DNA from: a bacterium
GTDB lineage: Bacteria > Zhuqueibacterota > Zhuqueibacteria > Zhuqueibacterales > Zhuqueibacteraceae
NCBI GenBank assembly: GCA_044869275.1
Contig: JBIOXB010000160.1
Location: 1 to 19,524, forward strand
DNA length: 19,524 nucleotides
Direction of reading: 5' to 3'
Positions 2,826 to 19,448 of this stretch are shown one piece after another (the stretch's first letter is position 1; every line of letters begins with the position of its first letter). The notes beneath the pieces were generated by a model. The model was given only the letters and a program-made list of their open reading frames with translations. It was not told where the DNA came from and did not search any database. Position numbers and translations under genes: made by a program.

Positions 2826-3818
2826 TCAGTAGAAATCGAAGCTGAGGCCTATTCCTGCACTTGCGGCTTTCTTATACACCAGCACTGCAGCCGCCGCATC
2901 CTGCAGGGCCATGCCGGTGCTGTCGAAGACAATGATTTCATCGTCTGCAATGCGCCCCGGTTTTTTGCCGGCCACCACTTGACCAAGCTCGGCGTGGACG
3001 TCGCTCGTTTGGATCAATCCCTTTTGCACCGCATGATGGAGATCGCCGATCGCGGCACATTGTTGCAACACATCAACCACGATTTTGTTTGATATGAAGA
3101 GGGCCGGATCGAGTTCCTGTTTTTCTTCGCTGTCGGCGCCAACTGCTGCCACGAACGTCCCCGGCGCGATGAACTCGCGGTGGAGAAAGTATTGTCGGGA
3201 GGGAGTACAGGTCACGCAGATATCGCTTTTCCTTGCACACGTTGAAAGTTGCTCTCGCGAAATCGGTTCAATGCGTAGATCGTCGGAAAACTCATCGGCA
3301 AGCAGCCTGGCCTGGCGTTCATCCTGATCGAAAACAAAAGCTTGCTTCAAAGGTCGCACCCGCAGCAGCGCGCGCAGTTGAATTCTTCCCTGATTTCCAC
3401 AGCCACAGATCGTAACAATCCTGGCATCCGAGCGGGCGAGATATTTGGCTGCCACCGCCGTGGCCGCACCCGTACGTTGGATGGTGATCTCAATGGAATC
3501 CATCAGCGCCAGCGGATATCCATTCTCGCCATCGCTCAGGATAATCACGCCTTGAATTGTTGGCAGGCCAAAGCGTTGCGTATTCTGCGGAAAGTTGGCA
3601 TTCATCTTGGCCACGAAATAACTTTTTCCCTCTTCCAGAAACCCTGCTTTTAAGTGAAACCCGCCATCATGAGCGTGCATACCCAGAATTCCCGGCGGTG
3701 TCGTTTTCTTTTCACCGTGGAGTTTGAAGGCTTGTTCCACCACCGTAATGCACTCGTCGAGATTCAGGAGCTGTGCGATTTCATGCCTCTTCAGCAGAAG
3801 TGTTCCTTCGGTTTTCAT
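2826..3818 (-). CDS. Ornithine cyclodeaminase / mu-crystallin family protein (archaeal-type alanine dehydrogenase-like)
   Basis: RTGAATAVAAKYLAR, GCGNQG Rossmann motif, AVGAD..KQELD and FDSTGMALQD. The ATG at 3818 is preceded by GGAG; the longer ORF-track start runs through a non-coding hairpin. Confidence 0.92.
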   Translation of the reverse strand: MKTEGTLLLKRHEIAQLLNLDECITVVEQAFKLHGEKKTTPPGILGMHAHDGGFHLKAGFLEEGKSYFVAKMNANFPQNTQRFGLPTIQGVIILSDGENGYPLALMDSIEITIQRTGAATAVAAKYLARSDARIVTICGCGNQGRIQLRALLRVRPLKQAFVFDQDERQARLLADEFSDDLRIEPISREQLSTCARKSDICVTCTPSRQYFLHREFIAPGTFVAAVGADSEEKQELDPALFISNKIVVDVLQQCAAIGDLHHAVQKGLIQTSDVHAELGQVVAGKKPGRIADDEIIVFDSTGMALQDAAAAVLVYKKAASAGIGLSFDFY

Positions 3819-3854
3819 GGTTATTCTCCATGGCTCAAATTTGGAAAGATATGG

Positions 3855-3998
3855 CTTGACAATGTTAAGTTGGCTAAAAAAGCCTCTAGTCTTTGTCATG
3901 CTGTAGGCATCTTCCCATGAGGCTTGCACACAAACCTAGGGAGGATGCTTACAGCATGACAATTTAAGAGGGCGCGATTTTAATCTAACATTGTCAAG
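3855..3998 (-). ncRNA. 144-bp long-hairpin element, copy 1 (candidate cis-regulatory RNA or miniature mobile element)
   Basis: Terminal IR CTTGACAATGTTA...TAACATTGTCAAG; inner stem TGTCATGCTGTAGGCATCTTCCC / GGGAGGATGCTTACAGCATGACA. About 80% identical by eye to 6679-6821 and 36 nt upstream of the ocd-like ATG. The repeat is certain; the RNA call is inference. Confidence 0.55.
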
Positions 3999-4075: not shown

Positions 4076-5397
4076 TTAAAAACCAACCCTAAACGAGTAT
4101 ATCATTCCCATCAACCCGCTGCCGATGACGACGGCAATGAGGTTCCAATCCCATTTCAACATGCCGGCGAAAGCGATCGCGCTCACGATAACGGCAAACC
4201 AATCGACCACGCCCTCATTCGGAAAAAGAACATGAAAGCCGAACCAAATGGCGAGGTTGAGCACGACTCCGACGACTGCCGCGGTGATGGACGACAGTGC
4301 GGAGGTGAGATTTTTATTGCCGCGCAATTGCTCGATATGCGGCGCACCGAGAAAAATCCAGAGAAAGCAGGGCAGGAAAGTTGTCCAGGTGGTGATCAAT
4401 GCGCCGAGAGTGGCGGCAACTAACGGCGATAAACTGCCAGGATGGTGCCACGCACCGAGAAAACCGACAAATTGCAGCACCATGATGAGAGGGCCGGGCG
4501 TGGTTTCCGCCAGGCCGAGGCCATCGAGCATTTGTCCGGCATTGAGCCAATGATAGTCTTCCACCGCGCGTTGCGCAACATATGGCAGCACGGCATAAGC
4601 GCCGCCGAAGGTTACTTCGCTGCTTTGCTGAAAAAAATGCTTTGCTTGAACAAAGCGTTGTTCCAACCGTGCCAGACTCCCGCAAGCAGCACCGGCAGCC
4701 ACCACAGGGTCAAGCAGGTCGCGCTTACTTTCAGCGCGCGCGCCAACGAGGGTTTGGTGTGCAACGGCGACTCGTCCTGATCGTTAATGACAGATTGCGA
4801 TTCATCGCTTGGTTTGCCGTGATTGCCGGCCAGCAAGAATGTTTTCGGCCAAACTTTGCCGCCAATGAGGCCGATGATGCCGGCCATGAAAATAATCAGC
4901 GGAAATGGCAGCTCCAAAAAGTAGATCCCCACAAACGCCAGCGCGGCGAGCGTCCACATCGCTGCGTTTTTGAGCGCCTTTTTGCCGATGCGAATGACGG
5001 CAAATGCGACGATGGCCACGACCGCCGGCTTGAGGCCGTAGAAAATCGCGGCGATCCCCGCGAGCTTGCCATGCGTAACATATACGAAACTCAATCCCAA
5101 CAAAATAAAAATTGAGGGAATGACGAAAAGCGCGCCCGCTGCGATGCCGCCGGCGGTTTTGTGCAAAAGCCAGCCGATATACGTTGCGAGCTGCTGGGCT
5201 TCGGGGCCGGGCAGCAGCATGCAATAATTCAGCGCATGCAGAAAGCGCGTCTCACTGATCCATTTCTTTTTTTCGACGAGCTCGGTGTGCATAATCGCAA
5301 TTTGTCCGGTTGGGCCGCCAAAGCTGATGAAGCCGAGCTTCAGCCAAAAGCGCAATGCTTCGGCAAAAGTGGGAGGAGGCATCTTCTGTGTTCTCAT
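4076..5397 (-). pseudogene. chrA: Long-chain chromate efflux transporter ChrA, split by a 1-nt frameshift near 4616-4617
   Basis: The N-half has LKLGFISFGGPTGQIA and LLPGPEAQQLA; the C-half has [10 protein letters not shown] and [10 protein letters not shown]. The family motif FFSKAAxVTFGG reads AAA GCA GCG AA GTA ACC, i.e. one base is missing. Confidence 0.92.
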
Positions 5398-5454: not shown

Positions 5455-6432
5455 TTATCTCCTGTTTGATTTCTGGCTGGAAAAATAGGCATACAACGCA
5501 TTCAGAAGTGTTGCGCCAGCCTCGAGGGTTTTATGATCATCCTTGTAAGCTTTAGCAAGCGCCCGCACCGCTGCGTCAATTCCAGCAGCTTCGGGGCGGC
5601 CGAACTTTGCATCCTTGACGTCAATATCGTGAACGATCTCAGCCATGGTGGCAAGCGCTCTGTCTTTCAATTGAAATGCTTTGAGCAGGGTCTCAAACGT
5701 GCAATCCTCGCCGTGGTGGCTGAACTCGGCGCCGAAGACATCGAACGAAATGGCATTCTGTGGCAGCTTCGACTCCGGCGCAAAGACGAATTTTGCCTTT
5801 GGGTCAATGAAACGTTTGATCAGCCATGCCGAACACAGACGATCGATGTGGATATGCTCGCGCGTCGTCCATACTTTTCCCTGGAAGGTCTTGGGGGAAT
5901 GGCGTTTGAGGGGCCGCAGATGCTCACGTTGCGGCTCCACCGAGGCAAGATGATTTTTGATTTGCGCCAGCGTGTTTTGCACTTTCTTGTTGAGCAGCGT
6001 GCCGAAGAAATCAATTCCCTGAATCTCCGCGAATGACTCGTTTAGCAGCTTGGTCTCTTTCGTTAACGTTTTCAAGAGCGCGTGCGAAGGTTGCTGTGCT
6101 TCCTTCGCGCGGCGAATGCGCTCCAACAATTTTTCTGCTGCAGATTGCAGCGTGGCGTAATCTTCTTCGCGGCTGCGCTGAAACAGGGCTTGCAGCGCTT
6201 GATCTTCCTTCGCGTTGTGGGATTCCGAAACAAATACCGAAGCTTCACCGCTGGCATCTCTGATTTGTTGGCACAGCCACTGAAAATCTTCCAGTCGTTC
6301 CTTGCTAGACGGCAAAACATAGACGGAATTGCGATAGAGCACCGCGCCGGCCTTCTTGGTCAGCCGCCAAATTTTCACCCGCTCGCGCGAGCGCGGGGTT
6401 TGCAATTGGTGAACGAGAAAAAGCCATTTCAT
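5455..6432 (-). CDS. chrB: Chromate resistance regulator ChrB
   Basis: N-domain WLFLVHQL..RVKIWR..GAVLYRNSVYVLP; C-domain WTTREHIHIDRLCSAWLIKRFIDP and FSHHGEDCTFETLL. ATG 6432 has an AAGGA RBS; the gene is directly upstream of chrA. Confidence 0.93.
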   Translation of the reverse strand: MKWLFLVHQLQTPRSRERVKIWRLTKKAGAVLYRNSVYVLPSSKERLEDFQWLCQQIRDASGEASVFVSESHNAKEDQALQALFQRSREEDYATLQSAAEKLLERIRRAKEAQQPSHALLKTLTKETKLLNESFAEIQGIDFFGTLLNKKVQNTLAQIKNHLASVEPQREHLRPLKRHSPKTFQGKVWTTREHIHIDRLCSAWLIKRFIDPKAKFVFAPESKLPQNAISFDVFGAEFSHHGEDCTFETLLKAFQLKDRALATMAEIVHDIDVKDAKFGRPEAAGIDAAVRALAKAYKDDHKTLEAGATLLNALYAYFSSQKSNRR

Positions 6433-6443
6433 CTGATTTTCCT

Positions 6444-6478
6444 TGTAATGTTTATTACAAATATAAATAAACATTACA
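6444..6478. promoter_or_regulatory. Perfect 13-bp inverted repeat with 9-bp spacer, probable ChrB operator
   Basis: TGTAATGTTTATT-acaaatata-AATAAACATTACA abutting the chrB RBS; it also contains the internal palindrome TGTAAT-N4-ATTACA. Confidence 0.7.
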
Positions 6479-6678
6479 CGACAAGCAATGTCATTTTTGA
6501 TGCCATTGCCGAATGGATCGAAGATGCTCCGGTTCGGTTTCAATACACTTGCAGGCCTGGAAGGCGGTAAATCACTTCCCTACTTGAAAGAATCGTTCAA
6601 GTGAAATCGGGAAGAGACAAAAAACAGAAAGGAGGAAGATTAGGACAGTGCGGACGGAGAAAGACCTGCCGCGATTAG

Positions 6679-7370: not shown

Positions 7371-8060
7371 TCACACAATCTTAAACACATAACGCAGGCT
7401 CATGATAATTCCCAGCAGGATCATGGTTATACCGGCAAATACGCCAAGCCTATTTTTCATTAGTCTTTTCGCAAAAAACGAATTTTTAGAATACACTGTA
7501 CCACGTGAAATTAGCAAAGCAATGAACAGCAATGGCATACTTGAACCCATGCCGAAAAAAACCGGGTAAAGAATAACGGATTTGGCTGAAATCGCTAATG
7601 GAATCAACACACCCAAAAAAATCGCTGCTGACATCGGGCAAAATGACAGAGCGATGAGAATCCCCAAAATTAGACTTCCAACGATTCCTGATCTTGAATA
7701 TGTCTTCATCAAGCGCCCAGATACTCTTAGCATTTGCTGCCTGGGGAGCAGAATACCGGAAAGCATCATGCCGGCGATGATCAGCAGCAAACCTAAAAGC
7801 GGCCTCATATACGATTGCAGAAAATCCGCAACCAAGGGTATATTGATCATGCCGATCGATATGAGAGCTCCCAGTGAGGCAAAAGTAATCACTTCACCAA
7901 GAATGAAAAACAAAACGATCGTGATGCTTTTGATGGCGCTTTGCTTCCAGGCGTAGAGCAGCGAAACAGCGGCGGCATTTGTGCTGAGGGGGCATGGGTG
8001 GATTACGGTGAATGCGCCCAGACCGAATGAAGTAAGCGCGCCAAGCAAAAATGTAATCAT
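7371..8060 (-). CDS. ArsG-family / CcdA-DsbD-like transmembrane protein
   Basis: About six TM segments with HPCPLSTN and LSFCPMS cysteine motifs; ATGA overlap with the upstream ArsF-like gene. Confidence 0.8.
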   Translation of the reverse strand: MITFLLGALTSFGLGAFTVIHPCPLSTNAAAVSLLYAWKQSAIKSITIVLFFILGEVITFASLGALISIGMINIPLVADFLQSYMRPLLGLLLIIAGMMLSGILLPRQQMLRVSGRLMKTYSRSGIVGSLILGILIALSFCPMSAAIFLGVLIPLAISAKSVILYPVFFGMGSSMPLLFIALLISRGTVYSKNSFFAKRLMKNRLGVFAGITMILLGIIMSLRYVFKIV

Positions 8061-9703
8061 CTGAGGTCCTTCTGAAAATCAGCAAGCTCCGACCGCAGCA
8101 TTTCGGTGAATTCCTGCCTTTTGTCGGTGAGATGCCAGGCCTCGGTCACGATTTTCCGGCGAGACTCCCGTCCCTGGTTCAGCTCGATCAGAACCACAGT
8201 GCTGGTAAAAAGGTTGTATTTTTTTCTCAGTGCTTGATATTTTGGGAGCTCCATATTCAACAGACGAAACGCGATCTTCCCTTCCTGAAGAGCGTTTGAG
8301 AAATAGGTATCGAGTGTTTCTTTCGTATGTTCTTCCATGTCGCGGCAAAATGCACAACGTTGAGTGCGATGAAATTGCAGGACGAGCAACCCGTTCTGAA
8401 ATGGCAAGTCAAGCTCTTCAACCAGGTTCATATTTGAGGAAGCAATCGTGCTGTCAGATCCTTGGTTAAGCTCAGGCATAAAAAGCCTGACCAGGCTTAC
8501 GGCCACGAACAGCAGCAGGCTCCAGCGTAACGCCTTAATCCAAAAACCCTGACTCGATCTATTTTGCTTTGAGAAATGCTCTTTGATGCGCTGGCGGAAT
8601 TCATGTTTTATTCTGAAACCCGGCTGCGCTTTTCCCAGTTTTATCTCTCCGGCGAATGCGTAAATGTTTACAGGACAGGCATCGGGATTCTTGTTATCCA
8701 AACGCGCCGCTTGTAAAACGCCGGCTTCTACCAGGCGATTGGCTGCGGTTACGCCATCGGAAGGACAGCAGCCCTCCATTTCTCTGGCATCACTGCCGGT
8801 GATGATGAAATATTCCGAATCAGATGCGATGAGATTGAGCAGTCGTTGTTTCATCTCAGGCGGCGTTTCATCCAGCGCCGTCAAATCGCTTATTGCAGAT
8901 AGATTGGAATGTATGTCAATTATCGGCGCGTCCAGCAGACACATCGTTCCGCGCTCGCCGTAGGCCCTGACAAAATTTTCCGCCTCCTTCGCGCCCTCAG
9001 CCAAATCGCCTTCCAGCAAAATGCCGCCATCTGATTTGATTAGTCTATTCGCCGTGGTTTTTGAAGCTCGCGTGGGCATTCCCCGGCGGACAATGGCGCC
9101 ATCTGCCCTGATCAGACTTCTGAACGGCCCCGGATAGAGGAGGGCTGAAGATAACTCTTCAGAAACCTGAGGCAACGATACGGAAGCATAAAGTCTTTCG
9201 GTATCCGATGCAAACGTGTCACAATCAAAAAGAGCAGGTTCTGTCTTAAGGCGGGCAATGAGCTCGGGATTCCCTTTTGTCACCGCTACTGCTTTTTGGT
9301 ACACAGGAAGCTGATAAACATTCGCCGTCTTTTCGCACACGCGGACTTTTCCAAACAGCAGATGGCCATCATCATCAAGCGCTGCCAGGGCGCCGCCGCG
9401 GTAAAGCGCCGATCTGCCGGTGTCATAGCAAGCGCCTGCTTTTCCCTTGCAGGCAATGATCCTGAGACCCCGAGTGAGGTGATTTTGCGGATGAATAATG
9501 ATGCCAACAAATCCGGAGATGTCGAGAGTTTGAATGATAGAGAGTAGGTTCGATAAAGAGCATGCAATCTCAAGCATGCCCCTGGCCGGAAGAGCGTCAT
9601 AAGCAGCGGAAATCTCACTTTCATCAGGGCAATTCAGAGTCAAGCAATTGCCCAGGAATTCTTTTGTGCTTAATGTTCCCGGTGCCGTTATCATGTTTTC
9701 CAC
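8057..9703 (-). CDS. Fusion protein: ArsM-C-terminal-like repeats + TM helix + ArsF-like thioredoxin-fold domain
   Basis: N-part has KGKAGAC...ALYRGG..ALDDDGH..VRVCEKT and a second LLYPGPF..ADG..VRRG repeat; then TM helix LRWSLLLFVAVSLVRLF; C-part has FHRTQRCAFC..LQEGKIAF..VTEAWHL. GTG start with an AAGGGA RBS. Confidence 0.7.
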   Translation of the reverse strand: MENMITAPGTLSTKEFLGNCLTLNCPDESEISAAYDALPARGMLEIACSLSNLLSIIQTLDISGFVGIIIHPQNHLTRGLRIIACKGKAGACYDTGRSALYRGGALAALDDDGHLLFGKVRVCEKTANVYQLPVYQKAVAVTKGNPELIARLKTEPALFDCDTFASDTERLYASVSLPQVSEELSSALLYPGPFRSLIRADGAIVRRGMPTRASKTTANRLIKSDGGILLEGDLAEGAKEAENFVRAYGERGTMCLLDAPIIDIHSNLSAISDLTALDETPPEMKQRLLNLIASDSEYFIITGSDAREMEGCCPSDGVTAANRLVEAGVLQAARLDNKNPDACPVNIYAFAGEIKLGKAQPGFRIKHEFRQRIKEHFSKQNRSSQGFWIKALRWSLLLFVAVSLVRLFMPELNQGSDSTIASSNMNLVEELDLPFQNGLLVLQFHRTQRCAFCRDMEEHTKETLDTYFSNALQEGKIAFRLLNMELPKYQALRKKYNLFTSTVVLIELNQGRESRRKIVTEAWHLTDKRQEFTEMLRSELADFQKDLR

Positions 9704-9743
9704 CGTAGTCCCTTAAAACTTAAATCTGTGCTTTTTTAGCAAA

Positions 9744-9829
9744 GAAATTCAAAATCCAAAGCACAAAATTCAATGCCCCTTTTGGATTTTGTGCTTTGAC
9801 CTTTGGGTTTCCGGCTCGTCCGGCTTAGG
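9744..9829. repeat. Palindrome of seven-nt units followed by a mini-hairpin tail
   Basis: 9744-9773 vs 9782-9811 form a 24/30 inverted repeat (core CAAAGCACAAAAT/ATTTTGTGCTTTG); units AAATTCA/AAATCCA/AAGCACA; tail CCGG-CTCGT-CCGG-CTTAGG. Confidence 0.8.
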
Positions 9830-10949
9830 CCAGCAATCTTTGCTTTCTTACAACTTCAGCGAGAGTTACGGACAGCGCTTCAATATCATCTTGAGTTGTA
9901 TGGCGCCCCATGGAAATTCGCAGGGTCCCGAGCGCTTCCTGCTCTGAGCGGCCCAAGGCCAGGATAATTCGAGAAGGCCTGAGGTCATTGGAATGGCAAG
10001 CTGAACCGGCGGAAACGGCAAATCCTCTCAGGCTCATTTCCGCCACTAAATTCGTCCCACTTGTTCCCGGAAAAGAGATAGAAACCAGCCCTGGCAAGCC
10101 CTCATCCCGGGAATTCAATGTGAAGGTTTGCGCCTGTTCAGAAAGCTTTCTCAAGAAATGCCCGGACAGTTGCTGAAGCCTATGTGATTCTTCAGCGATT
10201 ACGGCATGACTCGATTCCAGAGCTTTTAAAGCGGCTGCCAATCCGGGAATGTTTTCCGTGCCGGCACGGAGTTGCCGTTCCTGACCACCACCGATGATCT
10301 GTGGAGCCAATTTATCCGTATTGGTCAGAACGCCACCCACGCCCCGCGGTCCGCCGAACTTATGCGAGGAAAAGGTGTAAAAATTCACCGGCACATTCTC
10401 TAAATCGACCTCGATGTGGCCCAGGGCTTGAGCACCGTCACAATGAAAAAGAACTTCCCTTTCCTGGCACAATCTACCGTAGGCTGAAATATCGTGAACC
10501 ACACCGGTTTCGTTGCAGGCATGAACTGCGCTAAAGAGAACCGTGTTCTTTTTTAAAGAGTCCCGAAGCCTGGCTAATGACAGCCGGCCATCTCCTTGCA
10601 GAGGCACAACCTCAACGCGCCTTTTATAATGTTCTCTTGCAAACCAGGCAGACGCATGAACATCGACAACAAGCAGAAGACGTCCTTTGGGATATTTTTC
10701 CATGACTCCGCGGATCACAAGATTATTGGCTTCGGTTGCCCCGGAAGTCAGAATCATTCCGGCTTTTTTCCAATGGCACAATTCCGTGAACCGCTGCTTC
10801 ATTCGTGCCATGGCGTTGTATGCCTCGTTTCCGGGAAGATGGGCCGAGGAAGGATTGCCAAAAAGCTCGGTTGAAGCTTTGGTGAATTCCTCCAAAGCCT
10901 CCGGAAAGGCCGGGCACGAGGAGGCATAATCAAAATAGCGTATAGTCAT
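9825..10949 (-). CDS. iscS: Cysteine desulfurase, group I (IscS/NifS family)
   Basis: YFDYAS, GNPSS, TSGATEANN, NETG, HCDGAQ, SSHKFGGPRGVG (PLP lysine), RAGTEN and SAGSAC (catalytic Cys). Confidence 0.93.
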   Translation of the reverse strand: MTIRYFDYASSCPAFPEALEEFTKASTELFGNPSSAHLPGNEAYNAMARMKQRFTELCHWKKAGMILTSGATEANNLVIRGVMEKYPKGRLLLVVDVHASAWFAREHYKRRVEVVPLQGDGRLSLARLRDSLKKNTVLFSAVHACNETGVVHDISAYGRLCQEREVLFHCDGAQALGHIEVDLENVPVNFYTFSSHKFGGPRGVGGVLTNTDKLAPQIIGGGQERQLRAGTENIPGLAAALKALESSHAVIAEESHRLQQLSGHFLRKLSEQAQTFTLNSRDEGLPGLVSISFPGTSGTNLVAEMSLRGFAVSAGSACHSNDLRPSRIILALGRSEQEALGTLRISMGRHTTQDDIEALSVTLAEVVRKQRLLA

Positions 10950-11121: not shown

Positions 11122-12735
11122 TCACGTATTGGCGACAGAGAAATCACAGAGACTGTTTTTGAATACCAACGCGCCTGAGGGGCAAGCACTGACGCATTTC
11201 TCAGCGGTTTTCTGAAGTCCATTGCCAAGAGATTCATGCAAAGGCACGTCGACTCTGACATCAAAACCCCGGCCAATGAAAGTCAAGCCCAGCTCCTCGC
11301 CCTCTTTCTCAGTGATACGAACGCATAATCCGCATTGCATGCATTTCCCGGGCTCGTAAACCACGAAAGGATGGTTTGTGACTCTGGTGAGATTTCTTCT
11401 CCCCGTGCCGGTGTACCGTTTCGGATCCGCGCCGTACCGCTCGGCATAGATCCGCAGACTGCAGCCCTCAAAACTGACGCAGCCACACTGCACACAGCGA
11501 TTCGATTCGCGCACTGCTTGCTCGGCAGTGAGGTGGTGACCACTTATGGGTTTTTCGCGCACCGCCTGCCGAAACCTCGCTCCTCTCAAGTCATCCATAG
11601 TTTGAGTGAATGCAGCCAGCTCGTCGTTTCTCAACCGTGCGATGCGGGATTGTGAGCGATTGTTCAATATCGGAATCAACTGACCATGGAGATAGTGATT
11701 TACGGAAATTGCCATCGCGCGACCATGCGCCACCGATCTTACGGCCATTTTGCCCGGATGCACCAGGCCGCCGCCGGCAAAAACGCCGCGTGCGCTGGTC
11801 TCATGAGTATCCGCGTTGATATGAATACCTCTTGCCAAGGTCGCCACTGCAAACCGTTGCAATTCCTCCGGCGGCAGCTCGCCGGTGGCAAGTATGACCG
11901 CATCGAATTCCTGCCTCAACTCTGCCAGGGAGAGCTGTTCGCCTATTGCCCGGCGCATTTCGAGTTGTGCGCCAAGCCTTCTTATGATTTCGATTTCAGC
12001 ATCGAGAATTGGGAGTGGCAGAATGTCGCGCGGGACGCCGTACCTCAGCATGCCGCCGGCTTCTTCATTCTTATCAAAGATGGTGCAGGCATGGCCTTCC
12101 TGAAGCAGGTAGTATGCTGCCGATAAACCCGCCGGCCCGGAGCCGATAATGGCCACTTTTTTTGCCGTGGGCGCTTTGCATTCGGGCAGATACGGCGAAC
12201 CGCTCTTGAGGTCTTCATCCGCAACAAAGCATTTGAGCGCGCAAATGGAAAGAGCAGAGTCGATCGTCCTTCTGCGGCAGCCATGTTCGCAAGGGGCCGA
12301 ACAGATTCGTCCCAAAACAGCAGGAAGCGCAATGTGTGCTTTTACCGTCACCAGGGCCTCGTGCATTCTGCCGGTTTCGATGTGCATGTTCATCAGAGGA
12401 ATATTCATGTGCGCGGGACACGTGCGCTGGCAGGGCCCCAGACAGTCGCCAACATGATCGCTCAGCAACAGTTCCAGCGCGGACTTTCTGGCATGATGAA
12501 CTTTTTCGCTGTCGGTTTCAATGACCATGCCGTCTGCAGCCGGCACTGAGCAAGAGGGCAGCAGTTTTTTGCTTTTGACCTCTTCCACAAGACACAACAT
12601 GCACGAGGTAAAATGGGGATAGCCCTCGAGATAGCACAACGTTGGAATAGAGACGCCGAGTTTTCTCGCCGCCTGGAGTAGATTGGTTCCTGCGGGAACC
12701 TCCACCATTTTTTGATTGATCTGCAAATGAACCAT
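11122..12735 (-). CDS. Fe-S flavoprotein: NuoG/HydA-type 2Fe-2S N-terminus + GltD/NfnB-like Fe-S and FAD domain + C-terminal 4Fe-4S
   Basis: IPTLC..SCMLC..SC, HVGDCLGPCQRTCP, GRICSAPCEHGCRR, VAIIGSGPAGLSAA, GGMLRYGVP, RCVQCGC and CMQCGLC..CPSGAL. ATG 12735 has a GAGG RBS and lies 1 nt after the upstream stop. Confidence 0.88.
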   Translation of the reverse strand: MVHLQINQKMVEVPAGTNLLQAARKLGVSIPTLCYLEGYPHFTSCMLCLVEEVKSKKLLPSCSVPAADGMVIETDSEKVHHARKSALELLLSDHVGDCLGPCQRTCPAHMNIPLMNMHIETGRMHEALVTVKAHIALPAVLGRICSAPCEHGCRRRTIDSALSICALKCFVADEDLKSGSPYLPECKAPTAKKVAIIGSGPAGLSAAYYLLQEGHACTIFDKNEEAGGMLRYGVPRDILPLPILDAEIEIIRRLGAQLEMRRAIGEQLSLAELRQEFDAVILATGELPPEELQRFAVATLARGIHINADTHETSARGVFAGGGLVHPGKMAVRSVAHGRAMAISVNHYLHGQLIPILNNRSQSRIARLRNDELAAFTQTMDDLRGARFRQAVREKPISGHHLTAEQAVRESNRCVQCGCVSFEGCSLRIYAERYGADPKRYTGTGRRNLTRVTNHPFVVYEPGKCMQCGLCVRITEKEGEELGLTFIGRGFDVRVDVPLHESLGNGLQKTAEKCVSACPSGALVFKNSLCDFSVANT

Positions 12736-12736
12736 A

Positions 12737-15103
12737 TCAATGAACCTCAACTGCAGCCTCGGGGCAGACGATTCTGCAACTATCGCATTTGGTGCACGTT
12801 GCTAGATCGATCGCGTGTTTTTCGTATGGTCGGAATGCAATGGCATCTGCCGGACACACCTGAGCGCATTTTGTGCAGCCGATGCAGTTGTCATTGATTG
12901 CATACGCAATCATATCCCGGCATTTGCCGGCAGGGCATTTGCCTTGTATGTGTGATTCATATTCGTGACGAAAATACTTCAATGTGGTCAGAATCGGGTT
13001 GGGCGCGGTTTTGCCCAAGCCGCACACACTTCCCTGTTTAACTTCTCCCGCCAGATGTTCCAATTCCTCCAAATCCGAGGCCTTTCCCTGCCCGGCGCAG
13101 ATGCGCTCCAAGATATCGAGCATTCTCCGCGTTCCGATCCGGCAAAAAGTGCATTTGCCGCAGGATTGATTCTGAGTGAACCTCAGGAAATAACGCGCAA
13201 TATCGACCATGCAGTCAGCATCATCCAGAACGAGCAGCCCGCCGGAACCCATCATGGCGCCGACCTCGAGCAATGCCTCAAAATCGATCGAGGTGTCCGC
13301 CAGCTCGGCGGGAATACAGCCGCCGGAAGGGCCACCAATCTGAACCGCTTTAAATCTCCGCCCCTCTGCGATGCCGCCAATTTCTTCCACAATTTCTCTG
13401 ATGGTCATGCCCATCGGCACTTCGATTAAGCCGCCGCGGGCAATTTTTCCGGCCAGAGAAAATACTTTGGTGCCTTTGCTTTTCTCGGTTCCCAATTCGG
13501 CAAACTTTGGCGCGCCATGCCGCAGGATCCACGGCACCACAGCATAAGTTTCCGTATTATTGACGAGCGTGGGCTTGCCCCATAAGCCTTCATGAGCCGG
13601 ATATGGCGGCCTGAGGTGCGGCATCCCCCGCTTGCCCTCGATCGATTCGATCAAGGCCGTTTCCTCGCCGCAAACGAACGCGCCGGCCCCTTCAGTTATT
13701 TTCAGTTTGAGCGAAAAACCGGTTCCGAGAACACTATCGCCCAACAGTCCCGCTTCTTCACATTTGGCAAGCGCCTCCCGGATTCGCCGGACTGCCAACG
13801 GGTATTCCGCGCGAATGTAAAAGTATCCCTCATGGGCCGCCACCGCATAGGCGGCGATGATCATCCCTTCGATGACACGGAATGGGTACGATTCGAGAAT
13901 CATACGATCCATGAATGCGCCGGGATCGCCTTCGTCGCCATTACAGATGACGTATTTCTGCTCTCCTTTGGCTGCGCGGACAATCGCCCACTTCTGTCCC
14001 GTTGGAAAGCCGGCGCCGCCGCGTCCTCTCAGGCCGCTCTGTTGGATTTCCGTGATGACGCGTTCCGGCGTCAATTCGCGCAGGCATTTTTCGACAGCCT
14101 TGAAGCCATCGCAGCGGCGATATTCATCCAGATCGATCGGGTCAAGAACACCGCTGTGTTCGGTTGCGATATGTTTTTGCCGGCTCAGGAATGCGGCCAC
14201 CGGTTGGTCGCGCACATTCAACGGATAGCGGGTCTCCGGCTTGTCCATGCCATCGAATACGAGGTTTTCCAGGCTTCTTGCTGCACGCTGGTGGAGCCGC
14301 TCGAACCAGCTTCTTGGCTGAAAGTGACGCTGTATGATCTGCTCCACATCATCTGGTCGGACACGGGCATAGTGTGTCGAGGGTTGATCTCCAAGGTTCA
14401 ACTCCACCAGGGGAGTCTGATGACACATCCCGACACATCCGACTCGCTTAACCTCGATTTGAATTCTATTCTTTTCAAGCGAGGCATACAAGGCTTGACG
14501 CACGGCCTCGCTGCCGCTTGCAACGCAGCACGAACCGAGCCCGATGCGAATCTCGCCGCTGACTTTTTGTTTTTTCGTTTTCCCGGAGAATTTTCTCGGA
14601 CGGCCGTTTCGTGATTCACGCAGTAAGAAGTCGTTCAAGCAGCGGTCCACGCTATCCGATGTGACGTGGCCGTAGATAATGTCATCGATTTGAACCACCG
14701 GCGCCAGAGTGCAGCATCCCAGACAGGCAACAGTCTGCACCGTAAACAACCGATCCTGATCCGTATCCTCGCCAGCCTTGATCTTGAGCTCGCTGCGAAT
14801 ATTATCATGAACGAGCTGTGCGCCCTTGACATAACACGCCGTCCCGATACACACATTGATCAAATGTTTTCCGGTTGGCCGATGTCGGAATTGGGAATAG
14901 AAGGTCGAAACCCCAGAGATTGCCGCCGGTGTGATGTCGCTGATTTCGCAAACACGCCGAAGCGCTGCTTGCGGCAAATAACCGTACTTTTTCTGAATCG
15001 CCTGCAGAATCGGAGTCACATTGCCGGCCTCATGCCCGATTTCCGCGACGATGGCATCGACCTCTGTCAGAGCAAGGCTATTGTTAGTATTCGCAGAATC
15101 CAT
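12737..15103 (-). CDS. NuoE-NuoF (HydC-HydB / BfuC-BfuB) fusion NADH-binding flavoprotein
   Basis: CIGTAC/CLGCC 2Fe-2S site, second thioredoxin-like GSCC..GCVGMC, GLRGRGGAGFPTG, CNGDEGDPGAFMDR, GAFVCGEETAL, SCGKCTFCR, and two C-terminal CxxCxxCxxxCP. Alternative TTG start at 15121. Confidence 0.93.
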   Translation of the reverse strand: MDSANTNNSLALTEVDAIVAEIGHEAGNVTPILQAIQKKYGYLPQAALRRVCEISDITPAAISGVSTFYSQFRHRPTGKHLINVCIGTACYVKGAQLVHDNIRSELKIKAGEDTDQDRLFTVQTVACLGCCTLAPVVQIDDIIYGHVTSDSVDRCLNDFLLRESRNGRPRKFSGKTKKQKVSGEIRIGLGSCCVASGSEAVRQALYASLEKNRIQIEVKRVGCVGMCHQTPLVELNLGDQPSTHYARVRPDDVEQIIQRHFQPRSWFERLHQRAARSLENLVFDGMDKPETRYPLNVRDQPVAAFLSRQKHIATEHSGVLDPIDLDEYRRCDGFKAVEKCLRELTPERVITEIQQSGLRGRGGAGFPTGQKWAIVRAAKGEQKYVICNGDEGDPGAFMDRMILESYPFRVIEGMIIAAYAVAAHEGYFYIRAEYPLAVRRIREALAKCEEAGLLGDSVLGTGFSLKLKITEGAGAFVCGEETALIESIEGKRGMPHLRPPYPAHEGLWGKPTLVNNTETYAVVPWILRHGAPKFAELGTEKSKGTKVFSLAGKIARGGLIEVPMGMTIREIVEEIGGIAEGRRFKAVQIGGPSGGCIPAELADTSIDFEALLEVGAMMGSGGLLVLDDADCMVDIARYFLRFTQNQSCGKCTFCRIGTRRMLDILERICAGQGKASDLEELEHLAGEVKQGSVCGLGKTAPNPILTTLKYFRHEYESHIQGKCPAGKCRDMIAYAINDNCIGCTKCAQVCPADAIAFRPYEKHAIDLATCTKCDSCRIVCPEAAVEVH

Positions 15104-15169
15104 TTTGGCATTGCGCAGCAAAAGTTAGAAAAGAATTCTGACTTTTTTAAGCGTCATCAGATAAATTAA

Positions 15170-15278
15170 GGCCAACGGATGGAAAAACGGCCAACGGGTT
15201 TAAACACCTTGTTTTTACTTGTAGTTTTATCAAATGACGATGCGCTTCATCCGTTGGTCGTTTTTTAATCCGTTGGGC
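15170..15278. repeat. 30-bp imperfect inverted repeat of CCAACGG units
   Basis: GGCCAACGGATGGAAAAACGGCCAACGGGT (15170-15199) vs ATCCGTTGGTCGTTTTTTAATCCGTTGGGC (15249-15278). Confidence 0.8.
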
Positions 15279-15393
15279 ATTTTTTTTGAATATAAAGCTG
15301 TCCCGTTTGCGGGACTTCAGTTTTCAGCTTGTCTGAAAATCTGGCGTAGTCTATTGAAAGTGAAATCGTTGCTTTAAAAGCAAAAAAACTTTG

Positions 15394-15513
15394 AACCGCG
15401 AATTAACGTGTCGGCGAGCTCACGTCGAGCCGCTAATGGCCGCTAATTCATTATTCGCGTCAATTCGCGCCCATTCGCGGTTGCCATTTTGGTTGCGGCT
15501 CGACCGCGTTGGG
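15394..15513. repeat. Palindrome of 3+3 ten-nt CGC(G/T)AAT units with a nested 24-nt insert and mini-hairpin tail
   Basis: Right arm ATTCGCGTCA ATTCGCGCCC ATTCGCGGTT; left arm CCGCGAATTA ACG[insert]CTAATGG CCGCTAATTC; tail GCGG-CTCGA-CCGC-GTTGGG. Confidence 0.8.
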
Positions 15514-15530
15514 GCTTTGAGTGTGTCGTT

Positions 15531-17201
15531 TCAATCATTGCTTATACAAAACAGGCTTTTGTCGCCGCGAATGTAAAGCTTGTTACCGACAAATGCCGGC
15601 GAGCTGACGGTCTTCTCGCCGATGGCGAAATCGCCGAGGCTCTTGAATTCTGCTGCAGCTTCAAATATGTGCATGACGCCGCTCCGGTCCAGTGCATAGA
15701 CCCGGTTGCCTGCAATAATCGGTGAAGCATAAAAGCCGCTATTGAATTCGTGAGCCCACAGTTCCTTGCCGCTTTTCGCATCCAGACAGGCGATATAGCC
15801 ATAGTTCGTGGGCAAAAAAACATACTTGTCCGTCGCCACGGGGCTGGCAGCATCGGGAAGTTCATCGTGGTATTCCCAGGCGATTCCCGCGCCATTCTCC
15901 TCTAAGCGGATTCCGAAAGCGCCGGAGTACTCATTCGCCACAAAAACCATCCCCTCAGCGTATGCAGGAGACGGGCCATGTTCGCCTGACAGGCACTTTA
16001 CTCCCCAGAGCTTCACCCCGGTCTTCGGGTCATAAGAATCTACATACTCGCTGTTGGTCACGATCAATTGCGGCCGGTTGCCGGTTTCGATGATGATGGG
16101 AGAAGACCACGAAATCAAATCGCGCTCGACGCGCCAAACCGTGTTTCCGGTCAAAGCCTCCAGGCCCAGCAGCCAGCCGTTCGAGTTTTGATCATATTGC
16201 ACGATGAGCAGGTTGTCGTGCGCTATCAGAGAGGAGGAATGGCCGTAGTGGTTGTCGGGTATTCCCAAATTCCGGGTCCACACCTGATTGCTGTTCATAT
16301 CAAAGCACACGACCTGGCCTGTCGCGAAAATGGCAAATACATATCGGCCGTTGGCGGCCATGGTCGGCGCGGCAAAACCGGTTTCTTTATTCAGTTTGAT
16401 TTCTTTTAGAGCGCCATCTGCATCGTTTGCCTGCCTTTGCCACAGCAATTCTCCACTTTCAGCCTCAAAACAATACACTTCAAGACTTTCCTCATTCCCT
16501 CCCGAAAGAAATATTCTGTCATCCCAAATAACCGGCGAAGAGTGGCCGGGTTTTGGAACCGCAGCTTGCCATTTGATGCCTTGTCCGCTTTCCACCTCCC
16601 AGGCGAGGGGCGCTTGGTCGACCAAGGCGATGCCGTTGCCGCCGGGCCCCCGGAAACCGGGCCAGTTCCTGAGAAAATCTTCTTCAGAGATAGGGGAAAC
16701 GGCTTTATCAAAACCAACGGTGGCAATATCATGGTAAGCGAATCCTGCAAAAATAATCGTGGTTCCCAACAAAACGATTCCGACGCCGATTATCCATTGC
16801 CGTGCTTTGGCGGAGGTATGCCAGGCTTCATTATCCGCAAGTTTCCCCGCTAGCGCCGGCAATGTCTTGCGAGCGCTGCTCATCGTTTTGAGGGCCGCAA
16901 GCAAGAGGATCACACCACCCAACAAAAAGTGAGCGCCGGTTTTCAGTTGCCACTGGCTGACGAAATACGCTTTTCGACTCAGTAAATTCAGCGCACGGAT
17001 TTGATTGCGCAGCTCCTGATTTGCCGGATCCTTTTCCAGTTTTTGCATGAGGGTTGCCAGCGCTTCGCTGTTGAGCGGATCGATTGCTTTTGTCTGTAGA
17101 TAATTGGCAATGATCAGAGCGCAGACAATCAAAGTGAAGGCTGCGGCGCCGTATGCCACGCCGCGGGCCACACTGTAAACGGTTTGCTGGCTAATTTGCA
17201 T
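15531..17201 (-). CDS. Membrane-anchored PQQ-binding-like (BamB-type) beta-propeller protein
   Basis: Three N-terminal hydrophobic helices, then WPGFRGPGGNG, repeated G-x-x-x-W tryptophan-docking motifs and SSPV/SSPI/ASP repeats. Confidence 0.88.
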   Translation of the reverse strand: MQISQQTVYSVARGVAYGAAAFTLIVCALIIANYLQTKAIDPLNSEALATLMQKLEKDPANQELRNQIRALNLLSRKAYFVSQWQLKTGAHFLLGGVILLLAALKTMSSARKTLPALAGKLADNEAWHTSAKARQWIIGVGIVLLGTTIIFAGFAYHDIATVGFDKAVSPISEEDFLRNWPGFRGPGGNGIALVDQAPLAWEVESGQGIKWQAAVPKPGHSSPVIWDDRIFLSGGNEESLEVYCFEAESGELLWQRQANDADGALKEIKLNKETGFAAPTMAANGRYVFAIFATGQVVCFDMNSNQVWTRNLGIPDNHYGHSSSLIAHDNLLIVQYDQNSNGWLLGLEALTGNTVWRVERDLISWSSPIIIETGNRPQLIVTNSEYVDSYDPKTGVKLWGVKCLSGEHGPSPAYAEGMVFVANEYSGAFGIRLEENGAGIAWEYHDELPDAASPVATDKYVFLPTNYGYIACLDAKSGKELWAHEFNSGFYASPIIAGNRVYALDRSGVMHIFEAAAEFKSLGDFAIGEKTVSSPAFVGNKLYIRGDKSLFCISND

Positions 17202-17248
17202 TTGTCTGAATATTTAGGATCGCCGATTAAATAACTTTCTCATTTCCA

Positions 17249-17317
17249 AACCGCGAATAGACGCTAATGAACGCGAATTTAAACGAATTAGCGTGCATTA
17301 GCGTTGATTAGCGGCTT
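17249..17317. repeat. Palindrome of 3+3 ten-nt CGC(G/T)AAT units
   Basis: CCGCGAATAG ACGCTAATGA ACGCGAATTT ... ATTAGCGTGC ATTAGCGTTG ATTAGCGGCT; same family as 15394-15482. Confidence 0.85.
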
Positions 17318-17335
17318 AAAAAATGGTCGAGTAAT

Positions 17336-18664
17336 TTAAGTGCCGATCCTTTGCAGGGTTACCTTCTGTGTATTCTCATACGCTATGCGTTCGTAGGGAC
17401 AATACTCAAAACATCTCGAACAGGAATAGCAAGACCCACGGTCGATTTCATAGTCTTTTCTGGGCCGCACAACTGACAGCCTTATGGGTTTGATGGCGAA
17501 CATTAATCCCAGGAATCCGCCCAGGAACCAACCGCCAGTGCGAAATTGTTTGCGGATCGCCATGGCCTCGTCAAAAAGCTCCTGCGTGGGTTTTTCCTGC
17601 GAACGGAATGTCCGGCTCTCGAGAGTCGTTTGCAGGACAAGGCCCATATCCTCCATTTGTATTTGTTCCGCCAAAGCGACGGTGGGATGCATCCTTGCCA
17701 ATAGCAGATCTAACCGTGAGAGCGCCCAGCCACTGGATAAGACGATGACGGGCAGCAGCAAGAATAAGACGCCCAATCTTTTGATGCTTTGTTCCCGGGA
17801 TTCCGGGAGCCTGCCGCCAACCGGTTTCCGAATCGCGCCCATTGGACATGCGTCTTCGCACAGGCGGCATTGCATACAAAAATTCGGTGTGGTAGACACA
17901 TGCCATTTTGCCAGTTTCGACATCCAGCCTAACAACACGCCATAGGGACACAAAAAGCGGCAGTAAGGGCGCGCAACAAAAACACTGAGCGCCACAAAAC
18001 CGGCCGAGTATACCATTGTGCCAAAATCATTGCTCATGCGAAAGATTGAGACGAAAGGATCATACCGGCAAATCAGAAAGGCCGAGCCGGTTGCGGCAAA
18101 AAGCAGAGTAAAACCCAAATACAGGTAAGGGATAACGCCCAATACTTCAGAGAGCCAAGCGGGAACCTTCACGGGCCGCAGCATCACCAAATCCTGCACG
18201 CCACCGAGTGGACAAACGCCCGCACAAAATCCACGTCCAAATAAGAGCGCAAAAACCAGAGGGATTATGAAAAAGGCGAGCACGCCTATGGGCAGGACAA
18301 AACCCGAGTTAAACAAGGCGGCTGTGACATTCTGCAGGGAGCCAACAGCGCACACGCACCCTTTGCGATAGAACCCAAAATAGACAACGGAGAAAATGGT
18401 CAGTAAAAAGATGGCGTGGCGCGAGCGCTTCTTCAATGCAAAATAACTTGCCAGGCCGATGGCGGCGGCAAGCAAAACCACATCAAGTATTTCGAGAAAT
18501 GCCGAGCGGGGAGCCGGTTGCTGCGTCAGGGGCTTTTGATATCCGCTGTCGAATTCCGGCCTGGGGAAGCGGTCCTGGGCAAAAATGAAATTGTTGAGAA
18601 ACAAGAAAATCAAACACGCGGCCAGCCAGGACAGCTTCGATGCTTTCAACTTGTCCAATCTCAT
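17336..18664 (-). CDS. Polytopic membrane 4Fe-4S binding protein (NapH/MauN/NosR-C-terminal-like)
   Basis: GRGFCAGVCPLG and RPYCRFLCPYG (CxxxCP motifs), two CxxCxxCxxxCP motifs and many TM helices. ATG 18664 is in ATGA overlap with the upstream stop. Confidence 0.88.
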   Translation of the reverse strand: MRLDKLKASKLSWLAACLIFLFLNNFIFAQDRFPRPEFDSGYQKPLTQQPAPRSAFLEILDVVLLAAAIGLASYFALKKRSRHAIFLLTIFSVVYFGFYRKGCVCAVGSLQNVTAALFNSGFVLPIGVLAFFIIPLVFALLFGRGFCAGVCPLGGVQDLVMLRPVKVPAWLSEVLGVIPYLYLGFTLLFAATGSAFLICRYDPFVSIFRMSNDFGTMVYSAGFVALSVFVARPYCRFLCPYGVLLGWMSKLAKWHVSTTPNFCMQCRLCEDACPMGAIRKPVGGRLPESREQSIKRLGVLFLLLPVIVLSSGWALSRLDLLLARMHPTVALAEQIQMEDMGLVLQTTLESRTFRSQEKPTQELFDEAMAIRKQFRTGGWFLGGFLGLMFAIKPIRLSVVRPRKDYEIDRGSCYSCSRCFEYCPYERIAYENTQKVTLQRIGT

Positions 18665-19209
18665 GCCCGACTCTTTTTGCCTTTTAATAAGTACGGACTG
18701 TCTGCCGGAACCCGCTTGAACGCGCCGGAGGAGCAAACCTGGGCGATGGAGCATTCGTTGCAATTCAGACAGCGATCATGCCGAACCTGAAGATACAGAG
18801 AGCCATTGCCAAAAGCGCCGCAACCCTTAACGCATTTCGCACAGCCGATGCACTTTTCCTCGATGATTTTGTATTCGTAATATGGGTTTTCGACAAACGT
18901 GCGCTGAATGGCGCCGGTCGGACAAAGCTGGTTTTCAGCGGCGGTATCCTGTATTTTCGAGCCGGCGCGGTGATAGCCACCACACAGTTTGCAATAGCCG
19001 CAAACCTGAAATGCATGTACGCACTTTACCGCTGAAATGGTGAGCACGCAATGCGTGGAGCAGCGCTCGCACTGCACGCAAATGTTCGGATCGATTTGCC
19101 AGACAGTGCTTCGTGATCGCAACCTGCCGGCAGCAAGAGCAGCAATTCCGCCCATGAATAATGCGGAAAGCGATCGCAATCCGTTGGTGAGGAAATCACG
19201 GCGCTTCAT
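18661..19209 (-). CDS. Twin-arginine-leader polyferredoxin
   Basis: MKRRDFL plus a hydrophobic stretch; 17 Cys including four CxxCxxC motifs; ATGA overlaps at both ends. Confidence 0.88.
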   Translation of the reverse strand: MKRRDFLTNGLRSLSALFMGGIAALAAGRLRSRSTVWQIDPNICVQCERCSTHCVLTISAVKCVHAFQVCGYCKLCGGYHRAGSKIQDTAAENQLCPTGAIQRTFVENPYYEYKIIEEKCIGCAKCVKGCGAFGNGSLYLQVRHDRCLNCNECSIAQVCSSGAFKRVPADSPYLLKGKKSRA

Positions 19210-19448
19210 ATTTTTGCTCTGGTCAATTCAGACTCTTTTTTGGCCGACAATGCCTGCGGCAAGCCGCATCCGGAGAAAACACGGCAGCCGTCGCAGATTC
19301 CTGCGTTGATGCACTCCTGGCTTGAGCGCTTTATCTGCTTTCTTACCAACAGGGTGCTACCAACCAGGCCGATAGCGATCAAGCTGATACTACGTGCACA
19401 TCTCCGCAAGAACTCTCTGCGACTTTGTGTTTGTTCGAAAAAAGACAT
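19206..19448 (-). CDS. Small twin-arginine-leader Cys-motif protein (80 aa), unknown function
   Basis: SRREFL, a hydrophobic helix and C-x5-C-x2-C-x5-C. AAGGAG RBS 6 nt before ATG 19448; the stop overlaps the ferredoxin start. Confidence 0.8.
   Translation of the reverse strand: MSFFEQTQSRREFLRRCARSISLIAIGLVGSTLLVRKQIKRSSQECINAGICDGCRVFSGCGLPQALSAKKESELTRAKI

Follow-up and report, generated by a model that had tools for sequence, protein, structure and literature searches.

A bifurcating-type NADH module without an NADPH-binding subdomain, encoded with a NapH-like membrane protein and predicted periplasmic beta-propellers

Gene layout at the locus

We analyzed a stretch of DNA of 19,524 nucleotides (nt), termed the window, that comprises the entire contig JBIOXB010000160.1 of a Zhuqueibacterota genome (assembly GCA_044869275.1; genome G000 in our set; 6.7 Mb, 94% complete). 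It contains a block of six open reading frames (ORFs) that combines a cytoplasmic module of the electron-bifurcating Bfu enzyme family with a membrane Fe-S protein, a ferredoxin, and a beta-propeller. As described in a first-pass annotation of the DNA, all six have the same direction; they lie on the minus strand between positions 19448 and 11122, and they are real genes. The first gene in the direction of reading (19206 to 19448) encodes a small Cys protein of 80 amino acids (aa), which is likely anchored in the membrane as a subunit that binds a metal or an Fe-S cluster. It is followed by the gene of a 182-aa ferredoxin with 17 cysteines, predicted to carry four [4Fe-4S] clusters (18661 to 19209), by that of a NapH/NosR-like polytopic membrane Fe-S protein of 442 aa, assigned from motifs and hydropathy (17336 to 18664), and by that of a membrane-anchored pyrroloquinoline quinone (PQQ)/BamB-like beta-propeller of 556 aa, assigned from domain matches and a structure model (15531 to 17201). 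The last two genes encode a BfuC-BfuB fusion (NuoE/HydC plus NuoF/HydB; 12737 to 15103), recognized by domain and structure matches, which has 788 aa from the likely ATG at 15103 or 794 aa if the TTG at 15121 is used, and a truncated NfnA of 537 aa, here termed BfuA* (11122 to 12735), recognized by its match to the structure 9bov_A.

Of the five junctions between these genes, three are tight: two are ATGA overlaps (19206-19209; 18661-18664), and the third is a 1-nt gap at 12736. The first-pass annotation had given these positions correctly but had counted four tight junctions. The two wide gaps measure 134 nt (17202-17335, between the NapH-like and propeller genes) and 409 nt (15122-15530, between the propeller and BfuCB genes), and both contain dispersed repeats, with 51 and 43 BLAST matches on other contigs, respectively. 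Judged by these matches and by junction lengths elsewhere, the shorter gap is an insertion of such a repeat. In contigs of two sequencing runs of related strains (X3 and X7), 17215-17354 (140 nt) is replaced by 4 letters, and joints in related-strain contigs skip parts of 15122-15530. Among relatives, the NapH-like/propeller junction is 60 nt or shorter in 46/53 loci and the propeller/BfuCB junction in 30/44; the median gaps at these two sites in other loci are 4 and 9 nt, and the medians at three junctions range from 3 to 9 nt. Scans for promoters and terminators remained at chance level (13 versus 9.5 and 18 versus 16.4). A third repeat stretch was found at 9704-9824 (114 BLAST matches on other contigs), and the intergenic repeats, some of them in inverted pairs, resemble small mobile or repetitive extragenic palindromic (REP)-like elements.

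Since the window spans a full contig, its right edge, 76 nt ahead of where the first gene of the block starts, is an assembly break. One contig of a related-strain run reaches ~2.7 kb beyond position 19489, and no contig of G000 overlaps the right end of the window beyond short repeats.

The cytoplasmic module and the membrane arm

The BfuC-BfuB fusion matched the families PF01512, PF10589, PF14697, and PF01257 above their cut-offs, and the SLBB family PF10531 narrowly below it (26.8 bits versus 27). Its nearest structures were StnB (8oh5_B; E value, 4e-214) and NfnB (9bov_B; 9e-212), and cofactor sites were assigned by alignment to these two chains and tallied over 51 fusions. Those of cluster C1 (C91/C96/C133/C137), the ligands of the B2 zinc site (C637/H724/C729/C734), and the B3 cysteines were present in 51/51 sequences, those of B4 in 49 to 50. 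At B1, C654/C657/C700 were invariant and C660 occurred in 46/51; at B5, C199/C229 were invariant and C233 occurred in 45/51. The fusion is thus predicted to contain flavin mononucleotide (FMN), a site for NAD(H), the clusters C1, B1, B3, B4, and B5, and the B2 zinc site. The markers given in the relevant part of PMC7311640 for bifurcating beta subunits, namely, Ala/Glu232, Met234, Phe367, and GGPSG, were all found in the window protein and in the consensus as PGAFMDR (Ala/Met), GAGAFVC (Phe), and GGPSG, with the equivalence of positions taken from the motifs. Judged by sequence, the fusion shows each of the Bfu-family features listed in the pertinent sections of PMC9304861 that a sequence can reveal; a bifurcating activity would follow from family membership.

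BfuA* aligned with NfnA (9bov_A) with an E value of 2e-104 in two pieces, covering NfnA residues 4-287 and ~435-677. Absent are ~148 residues that form the NADPH-binding subdomain: the spacing between G285 and F319 is at most 35 residues in 43/43 sequences (29 to 35 in 40 of them), versus ~182 in NfnA. The protein ends at the equivalent of NfnA residue ~680, and the C-terminal Fdh/NuoG-like domain is absent. The Cys/His ligands of clusters A1, A2, A3, A6, and A7 were found in all 43 sequences, among them those of the A1 [2Fe-2S] (C34/45/48/62) and A2 [4Fe-4S] (C465/468/471/518) clusters and C106/C145/C149 of A7. The lysine ligand of A7, K168, occurred in 40/43, as did a new cysteine beside this cluster, Cys165. 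The A4 ligand positions 475, 508, and 511 are not Cys, so that the A4 ligands are lost. A FAD (flavin adenine dinucleotide)-type Rossmann fold is kept, with the dinucleotide glycines (GxGxxG) and the acidic ribose ligand D/E221 in 43/43 sequences. Of the other pocket residues, taken from the corresponding part of PMC12018979, the FAD Asp (GD) was found in 8/43 and the flavin-N5 Arg in 4/43; a preliminary statement that the Asp is never kept was wrong. A second GGG-type nucleotide motif was not found in BfuA*. The alignments identify BfuA* as an Nfn-type BfuA from which the NADPH-binding subdomain has been deleted and which retains five cluster sites along with the FAD-type fold. The first-pass description of the module as one with no catalytic subunit is thereby upheld and refined.

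This module can be compared with the Nfn-Bfu enzymes NfnABC and StnABC, for which structures from Caldicellulosiruptor (9BOV), Sporomusa (8OH5), and Thermococcus (9N5U) are available (PMC11829005 and PMC12018979). Shared with them are the BfuBC core with its cofactor ligands, A1, A2, A3, A6, the Lys-ligated A7, and the insertion of the FAD-type Rossmann fold in a His-ligated cluster motif. In contrast, C and B are fused here, the A subunit has 537 aa instead of 963 to 1178, the NADPH subdomain, A4, and the Fdh/NuoG-like domain with A5 are missing, the N5 Arg is lost, Cys165 is new, and membrane and periplasmic genes are co-encoded. BfuA* thus differs from Nfn-Bfu (Type 1) by the missing NADP(H) subdomain and C-terminal domain, and from Bfu Type 2, in which A3 is absent and entry is via A4, by its complete A3 ligands (43/43) and lost A4 ligands.

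An ordinary NfnABC transhydrogenase lying beside unrelated membrane genes, or one whose partner hydrogenase or formate dehydrogenase has its genes at another place, would account for the finding that the nearest structural relatives are NfnA/StnC and NfnB/StnB, and G000 does encode a NiFe enzyme and Mo enzymes on other contigs. The NADPH subdomain is nevertheless absent throughout, with no second GGG-type motif to replace it and the N5 Arg kept in 4/43 sequences, the A4 entry point of Type 2 enzymes has no ligands, and in several phyla the module keeps both its company with the membrane genes and their order (see below). We consider this explanation very improbable and largely refuted by the sequence. 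In agreement with the first-pass annotation, neither an H-cluster, NiFe, or Mo/W-pterin domain nor a complete one for NADP(H) is encoded in the window. The annotation had also raised the possibility of a catalytic subunit just outside the window; no hydrogenase, formate dehydrogenase, pterin, or aldehyde oxidoreductase (AOR) subunit was among the recurring neighbor families of relatives, G000 gave no match to an FeFe-hydrogenase or AOR, and its NiFe and Mo enzymes have other neighbors; its own complex I likewise lies on other contigs. Elsewhere in G000 (contig C59, 19429-28144), a GltD-like flavoprotein gene precedes Rieske-like, cytochrome b-like, and nitrous-oxide-reductase-like ones; these labels stem from sequence reading and not from a family scan.

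The NapH-like protein has a signal-like N terminus, two CX3CP motifs (C147/C151 and C235/C239), two [4Fe-4S] motifs (C263-C273 and C412-C422) with a further hydrophobic hairpin between them, and three extra cysteines (C103, C105, and C199). The CX3CP pair, the [4Fe-4S] pair, and the extra cysteines were invariant in 49/49 aligned sequences. The two motif pairs and an adjoining twin-arginine multi-cluster ferredoxin are shared with the NapGH/NosR/RdhC membrane modules, as treated in the relevant part of PMC5928378. The window protein differs from these by the three cysteines, the hairpin, and scores far under the NapH cut-offs (NF007013, 49.6 bits versus 234; TIGR02163, 47.4 versus 213), and the block by the absence of NapA, NosZ, or RdhA and by its link to an NADH/ferredoxin module. 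A suspected kinship of the hairpin with the membrane anchor of the propeller (E value, 0.59) was rejected. The adjoining ferredoxin starts with RRDFL, and RRxF was present in 64/68 homologues. In the family model scan, the NapG model did not match it, and a remote match was obtained to WorS (9mqx_E; E value, 0.0017). The ferredoxin is likely a twin-arginine protein, predicted to be exported, with a presumed NapG-like role. The small Cys protein, which matched no Pfam or NCBIfam family, has a twin-arginine-like SRREFL motif, one hydrophobic helix, and the pattern C-x5-C-x2-C-x5-C; in 22 aligned homologues the four cysteines were each conserved in at least 95%, and RRxF occurred in just 10.

The 556-aa propeller has three N-terminal hydrophobic helices, and its propeller part, modeled with a mean predicted local distance difference test (pLDDT) score of 88.5, was predicted to be periplasmic. 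It shares the eight-blade type fold and Trp docking motifs with BamB, YxaL, and the PQQ quinoproteins; the membrane helices set it apart from these proteins, and its nearest solved folds, BamB and YxaL, show 13 to 19% identity. Scores were 53 bits versus a cut-off of 480 for the PQQ alcohol dehydrogenases (TIGR03075) and 61 versus 285 for BamB. An invariant metal- or PQQ-type residue set was not found in this protein; most of the positions that never vary hold Trp, Gly, Ser, or Pro, so that it does not have the appearance of a catalytic quinoprotein. A search for PqqC was empty in 5/5 genomes, yet equally empty in all 14 controls.

Conservation of the block and a proposed electron route

To assess conservation, we used the ferredoxin as query, which retrieved at least 198 relatives, and fetched the best 80 loci. 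Denominators include only loci with sufficient flank, and the profiles were built from those same loci. The order of the block recurred, with the NapH-like gene in 68/68, the propeller in 57/59, BfuCB in 50/54, BfuA* in 46/52, and the small protein in 77/79 loci. It was kept in records labeled KSB1, Bacteroidota, Planctomycetota, Verrucomicrobiota, and Lentisphaerota, and the record titles of relatives additionally include Aminicenantia and Poribacteria. Upstream, beyond the point that corresponds to the window edge, relatives encode an NHL propeller (73/74 loci) and a second membrane-anchored propeller of 475 aa (65/69), and 51/80 loci have several extra PQQ-like propellers. The six genes thus make up the downstream portion of an operon that is conserved and that, in relatives, continues past the right edge, as the first-pass annotation had suspected. 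Among the long ORFs of six loci, one fusion joins the NapH-like protein and the propeller (L027) and one joins the propeller and the NHL protein (L029). Two further candidates for the former were dismissed, L055 as an over-extended ORF call and L080 as a double propeller. In a locus of genome G025 (L095, 10041-15016), ~6 kb is inserted between the propeller and BfuCB genes; the insert includes an apparent group II intron reverse transcriptase, judged by a motif.

Genome by genome, the cytoplasmic module and the membrane arm co-occur. Among 133 genomes of the phylum, BfuA* was found in 28, the NapH-like protein in 27, and the NHL propeller in 26; BfuA* and the NapH-like protein were both present in 26, both absent in 104, and present singly in 3. 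The neighborhood search that the first-pass annotation had suggested thus returned one conserved block. The NapH-like protein was also detected in 108/151 genomes sampled from the Bacteroidota family to which Mariniphaga anaerophila belongs; strain DSM 26910 of this species is a cultured carrier (locus L063). The ferredoxin was not found in any of 18 genomes of the same family as G000 (1 of the same genus); the block may thus have been gained laterally in this genome or lost in its kin.

The members of the NHL propeller family keep the motif GFxGCCNP, with C300 and C301 in at least 95% of 69 aligned sequences. This Cys-Cys pair, encoded outside the window, is most likely the candidate terminal site, in preference to the 556-aa propeller. 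The first-pass annotation had let the electron path end at a periplasm-facing propeller; the propeller link is conserved, and the PQQ-like propeller of the window gives way to the NHL propeller as the presumed end point.

Comparison with known systems characterizes the block as a putative Bfu member joined to a NapGH-like pair, which is neither an Nfn-Bfu nor a Type 2 enzyme, nor is its membrane protein a NapH. In Bfu Types 2 to 4, which include WorABCSL (relevant parts of PMC9304861 and PMC12318220), the third reaction is likewise given to extra subunits, and the 4x[4Fe-4S] subunit of our block is remotely WorS-like; entry in those types is, as described there, via A3 or A4 with a pterin, NiFe, or complex I module, which is not the case here. 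Neither a NapH-like protein nor an exported ferredoxin nor propellers are among the types in the classification section of PMC9304861. Its tree figures may include such members under Nfn in clade 53, which is said to include Bacteroidetes. A description of the operon was not found in the literature searched, whose scope mostly excluded subscription papers.

The reading that we favor, to which we assign somewhat less than an even chance, is that a Bfu type without an NADPH site passes electrons from NADH and ferredoxin through the NapH/NapG-like pair to propellers in the periplasm, of which the NHL protein with its Cys-Cys site is the probable recipient. The individual steps would be as follows. 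(i) BfuCB, for which ligands and markers are found in the sequence and activity is that of the family, would bind FMN and NAD(H) and merge the electrons of NADH and reduced ferredoxin. (ii) The electrons may then pass along B1-A1-A2-A3-A6-A7, for which the ligands are present, by analogy to the path FAD-A7-A6-A3-A2-A1-B1 given for NfnABC in the corresponding section of PMC11829005. Since the A4 side route has no ligands, the A7/flavin end would be the sole open end. (iii) With the NADPH subdomain gone, this end would face another protein; the NapH-like protein, with its two [4Fe-4S] sites on the cytoplasmic side, is the most likely partner. (iv) The NapH-like protein would pass the electrons over the membrane to the twin-arginine ferredoxin, as from NapH to NapG. 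(v) The terminal site, at which an acceptor would be reduced, would most likely be the NHL Cys-Cys motif, and the PQQ-like propellers may serve as scaffolds or substrate binders.

A number of observations weigh against this reading. (i) The FAD Asp is mostly replaced, which makes flavin occupancy of BfuA* uncertain. (ii) Three of the 133 genomes are discordant for BfuA* and the NapH-like protein, and since kin are not independent, the co-occurrence counts overstate the association. (iii) The membrane arm was found without a nearby BfuCB in 4/54 loci (L003, L017, L045, and L074); in L003, which belongs to genome G022, BfuCB sits on another contig. (iv) Searches of G000, which is 94% complete, did not find an NHL gene; this is most simply explained by a contig break at that place. 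(v) A glycosyltransferase-like gene and a MacB-type ATP-binding cassette (ABC) transporter follow the core in most carriers of the KSB1 phylum and would be left unexplained by a pure electron sink. (vi) NapH is described in the pertinent part of PMC5928378 as a quinol dehydrogenase, so that quinone coupling instead of a direct wire is possible.

The last point leads to a reading in which quinone takes up the electrons of Bfu at the NapH-like protein, and the latter would itself act as quinol dehydrogenase for the periplasmic ferredoxin, with no continuous Fe-S wire. The membrane segments of NapH are proposed in the same part of PMC5928378 to oxidize quinol for NapG, both CX3CP motifs are retained here, and a quinone-reducing Nuo-Bfu is proposed in the relevant section of PMC9304861. 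Against this, the block has no proton-pumping subunits, so that merging the electrons of NADH and ferredoxin onto menaquinone would waste energy, and the extra invariant C103, C105, and C199 point to further metal sites within the membrane portion. We consider quinone-pool coupling distinctly unlikely.

The direction of flow is a separate matter, and outward flow is preferred solely by analogy to NapGH. With the same wiring, a periplasmic propeller enzyme may instead oxidize a low-potential substrate (e.g., an aldose or aldehyde), the electrons being bifurcated to NAD+ and ferredoxin in a manner comparable to WorABCSL. The description of Bfu enzymes as reversible (in the pertinent part of PMC9304861), the remote match of the ferredoxin to the tungsten-enzyme subunit WorS, and the extra upstream PQQ-like propellers are consistent with inward flow. 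However, no cofactor site for such an oxidation was found, the propeller is BamB/YxaL-like and devoid of an invariant polar ligand set, and the NapGH precedents run outward; inward flow is thus unlikely, if somewhat less so than coupling through quinone.

In the characterized Bfu enzymes covered here, the third reaction is completed in the cytoplasm, and the two types with a membrane-bound form that are predicted in the classification part of PMC9304861, Nuo-Bfu and Mbh-Bfu, are complex I or hydrogenase hybrids. If the favored route holds true, a Bfu enzyme that exports electrons via a NapH/NapG-like pair would represent a new way to dispose of, or to harvest, reducing power across a membrane, and would bear on the role of the cytoplasmic clusters and CX3CP motifs in NapH/NosR-type proteins. 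The system is common, given its frequency in one Bacteroidota family (108/151 genomes) and in the host phylum (28/133), and the cultured carrier makes it testable. Automatic annotation masks it under the names "glutamate synthase small chain," "NuoF," and "BamB." Our analysis adds a residue-level inventory of the A subunit, co-occurrence at the genome level, the origin of the gaps in repeats, and the existence of two alternative tails.

Operon tails and neighboring genes

In the usual tail, the core is followed by genes for a 380-aa propeller, a glycosyltransferase family 4 (GT4) enzyme with an invariant CxxC, an ABC ATPase, and a MacB-type permease. The tail in the window is a variant. It begins with a NifS-type cysteine desulfurase-like gene (9825-10949, minus strand; domain matches), the first of an accessory cassette that continues with a gene for a Cys-rich region, a membrane helix, and an ArsF-like CxxC domain in one protein (8057-9703, minus strand; NF040494) and one for an ArsG-like membrane protein that contains HPCP and FCP motifs (7371-8060, minus strand; NF040495). 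Of the 28 carriers in the phylum, 22 have the operon-type glycosyltransferase, and the remaining 6, G000 included, have the ArsF-like gene instead; among non-carriers, the ArsF-like gene was found in none of the genomes and the glycosyltransferase in one (G107). The cassette adjoins the core in G000, G022, G025, G036, G053, and G095 and in a planctomycete locus (L012). In an unrooted BfuCB tree of 58 sequences, made with a quick method, the cassette-bearing loci were scattered, with 4 changes needed (at least 3 of them forced) and L012 on a long branch.

The first-pass annotation had placed a cysteine desulfurase after the block. It is present at 10949-9825, but it is not part of the core; the cassette of three genes of which it is a member is also found where the Bfu module is missing. 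We had considered the cassette as dedicated to this module, which the 6/6 phylum genomes fit, but rejected this since none of 49 metagenome loci, most of them short, that were retrieved with the ArsF-like protein as query shows a core gene. NifS was found in 42 of these loci and an aquaporin in 9. The distant glycosyltransferase paralogue that 5 of the 6 genomes encode elsewhere likewise speaks against a dedicated role. On many metagenome contigs (L115 to L163) the cassette stands alone, often behind an aquaporin and a PadR-like gene, and it matched 97 protein clusters, none of them Pfam-annotated. It was not detected in the 151 Mariniphaga-family genomes, in a search without positive control. 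Such a self-standing cassette may handle sulfur or a metalloid.

The ArsF-like fusion exceeds the NF040494 cut-off over residues 441-542, and the ArsG-like protein remains below that of NF040495 (147 bits versus 200). Known to us by these NCBIfam labels, ArsF and ArsG likewise combine a thioredoxin-type CxxC domain with an adjoining Cys-Pro membrane protein; here, in contrast, the ArsF-like domain is fused to a Cys-rich cytoplasmic region, a cysteine desulfurase lies ahead, and no ArsE was seen. The N-terminal Cys-rich region has the invariant residues C92, C123, G-C312-C313-P, and C343. No Pfam family was found for it among 32 members, and its best match in an atlas search (0.79) is a lead only. 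A presumed likeness to the C-terminal part of arsenite methyltransferases was confirmed by nothing in our analysis.

Both tails enter into an extended version of the favored reading, according to which the system would be a new type of bifurcating enzyme, with a haem-free, all-Fe-S wire through the inner membrane that delivers mid-to-low-potential electrons from NADH and ferredoxin to a periplasmic propeller reductase. The latter would contain a Cys-Cys site of a metal-sulfur or redox kind not described so far, and two tails could replace each other in its maturation, the glycosyltransferase-like protein with the ABC transporter or the cysteine desulfurase with a thiol relay. We put this forward tentatively, as it is in our view rather doubtful in its entirety.

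The tails also bear on the possibility that the block supplies reductant for making or maturing a glycosylated or prenylated compound or cofactor of the envelope that is exported by the ABC transporter. The CxxC GT4 glycosyltransferase, ABC ATPase, and MacB-type permease behind the core in 22/28 carriers are in line with this, as is a radical S-adenosylmethionine (SAM), DUF116-polyprenyl synthase, prenyltransferase, and squalene-cyclase-like set upstream in 4 to 6 of the 80 loci. However, the polyprenyl synthase occurs in only 4/133 genomes, 3 of them carriers, and the 6 carriers with the cassette have no operon-type glycosyltransferase, although 5/6 encode a distant paralogue (33 to 36% identity) elsewhere. 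A role in envelope biosynthesis thus appears quite improbable.

Given the 4/133 count of the polyprenyl synthase, the terpenoid genes were rejected as part of the system. In the few genomes with the upstream set (L010, 1095-7336; L001, 1027-6827; L007, 3-5657), it is conserved and comprises ferredoxin-like, radical SAM, DUF116-polyprenyl synthase fusion, prenyltransferase-like, and squalene-cyclase-like genes; these may form a terpenoid pathway that has not been described. The CxxC glycosyltransferase paralogue was found in 25/133 genomes without the operon-type gene; in G000 (contig C137, 54776-56119; 35% identity), its neighbors are sodium-symporter-like, TonB-receptor-like, and propeller genes. 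Further along the window, a chromate transporter gene, ChrA, is split into two ORFs (4612-5397 and 4076-4705), possibly by a frameshift, with ChrB (5455-6543) upstream. The stretch 936-3929 encodes, in the same orientation as the rest, an ABC permease, a solute-binding protein, and a member of the ornithine cyclodeaminase/mu-crystallin family.

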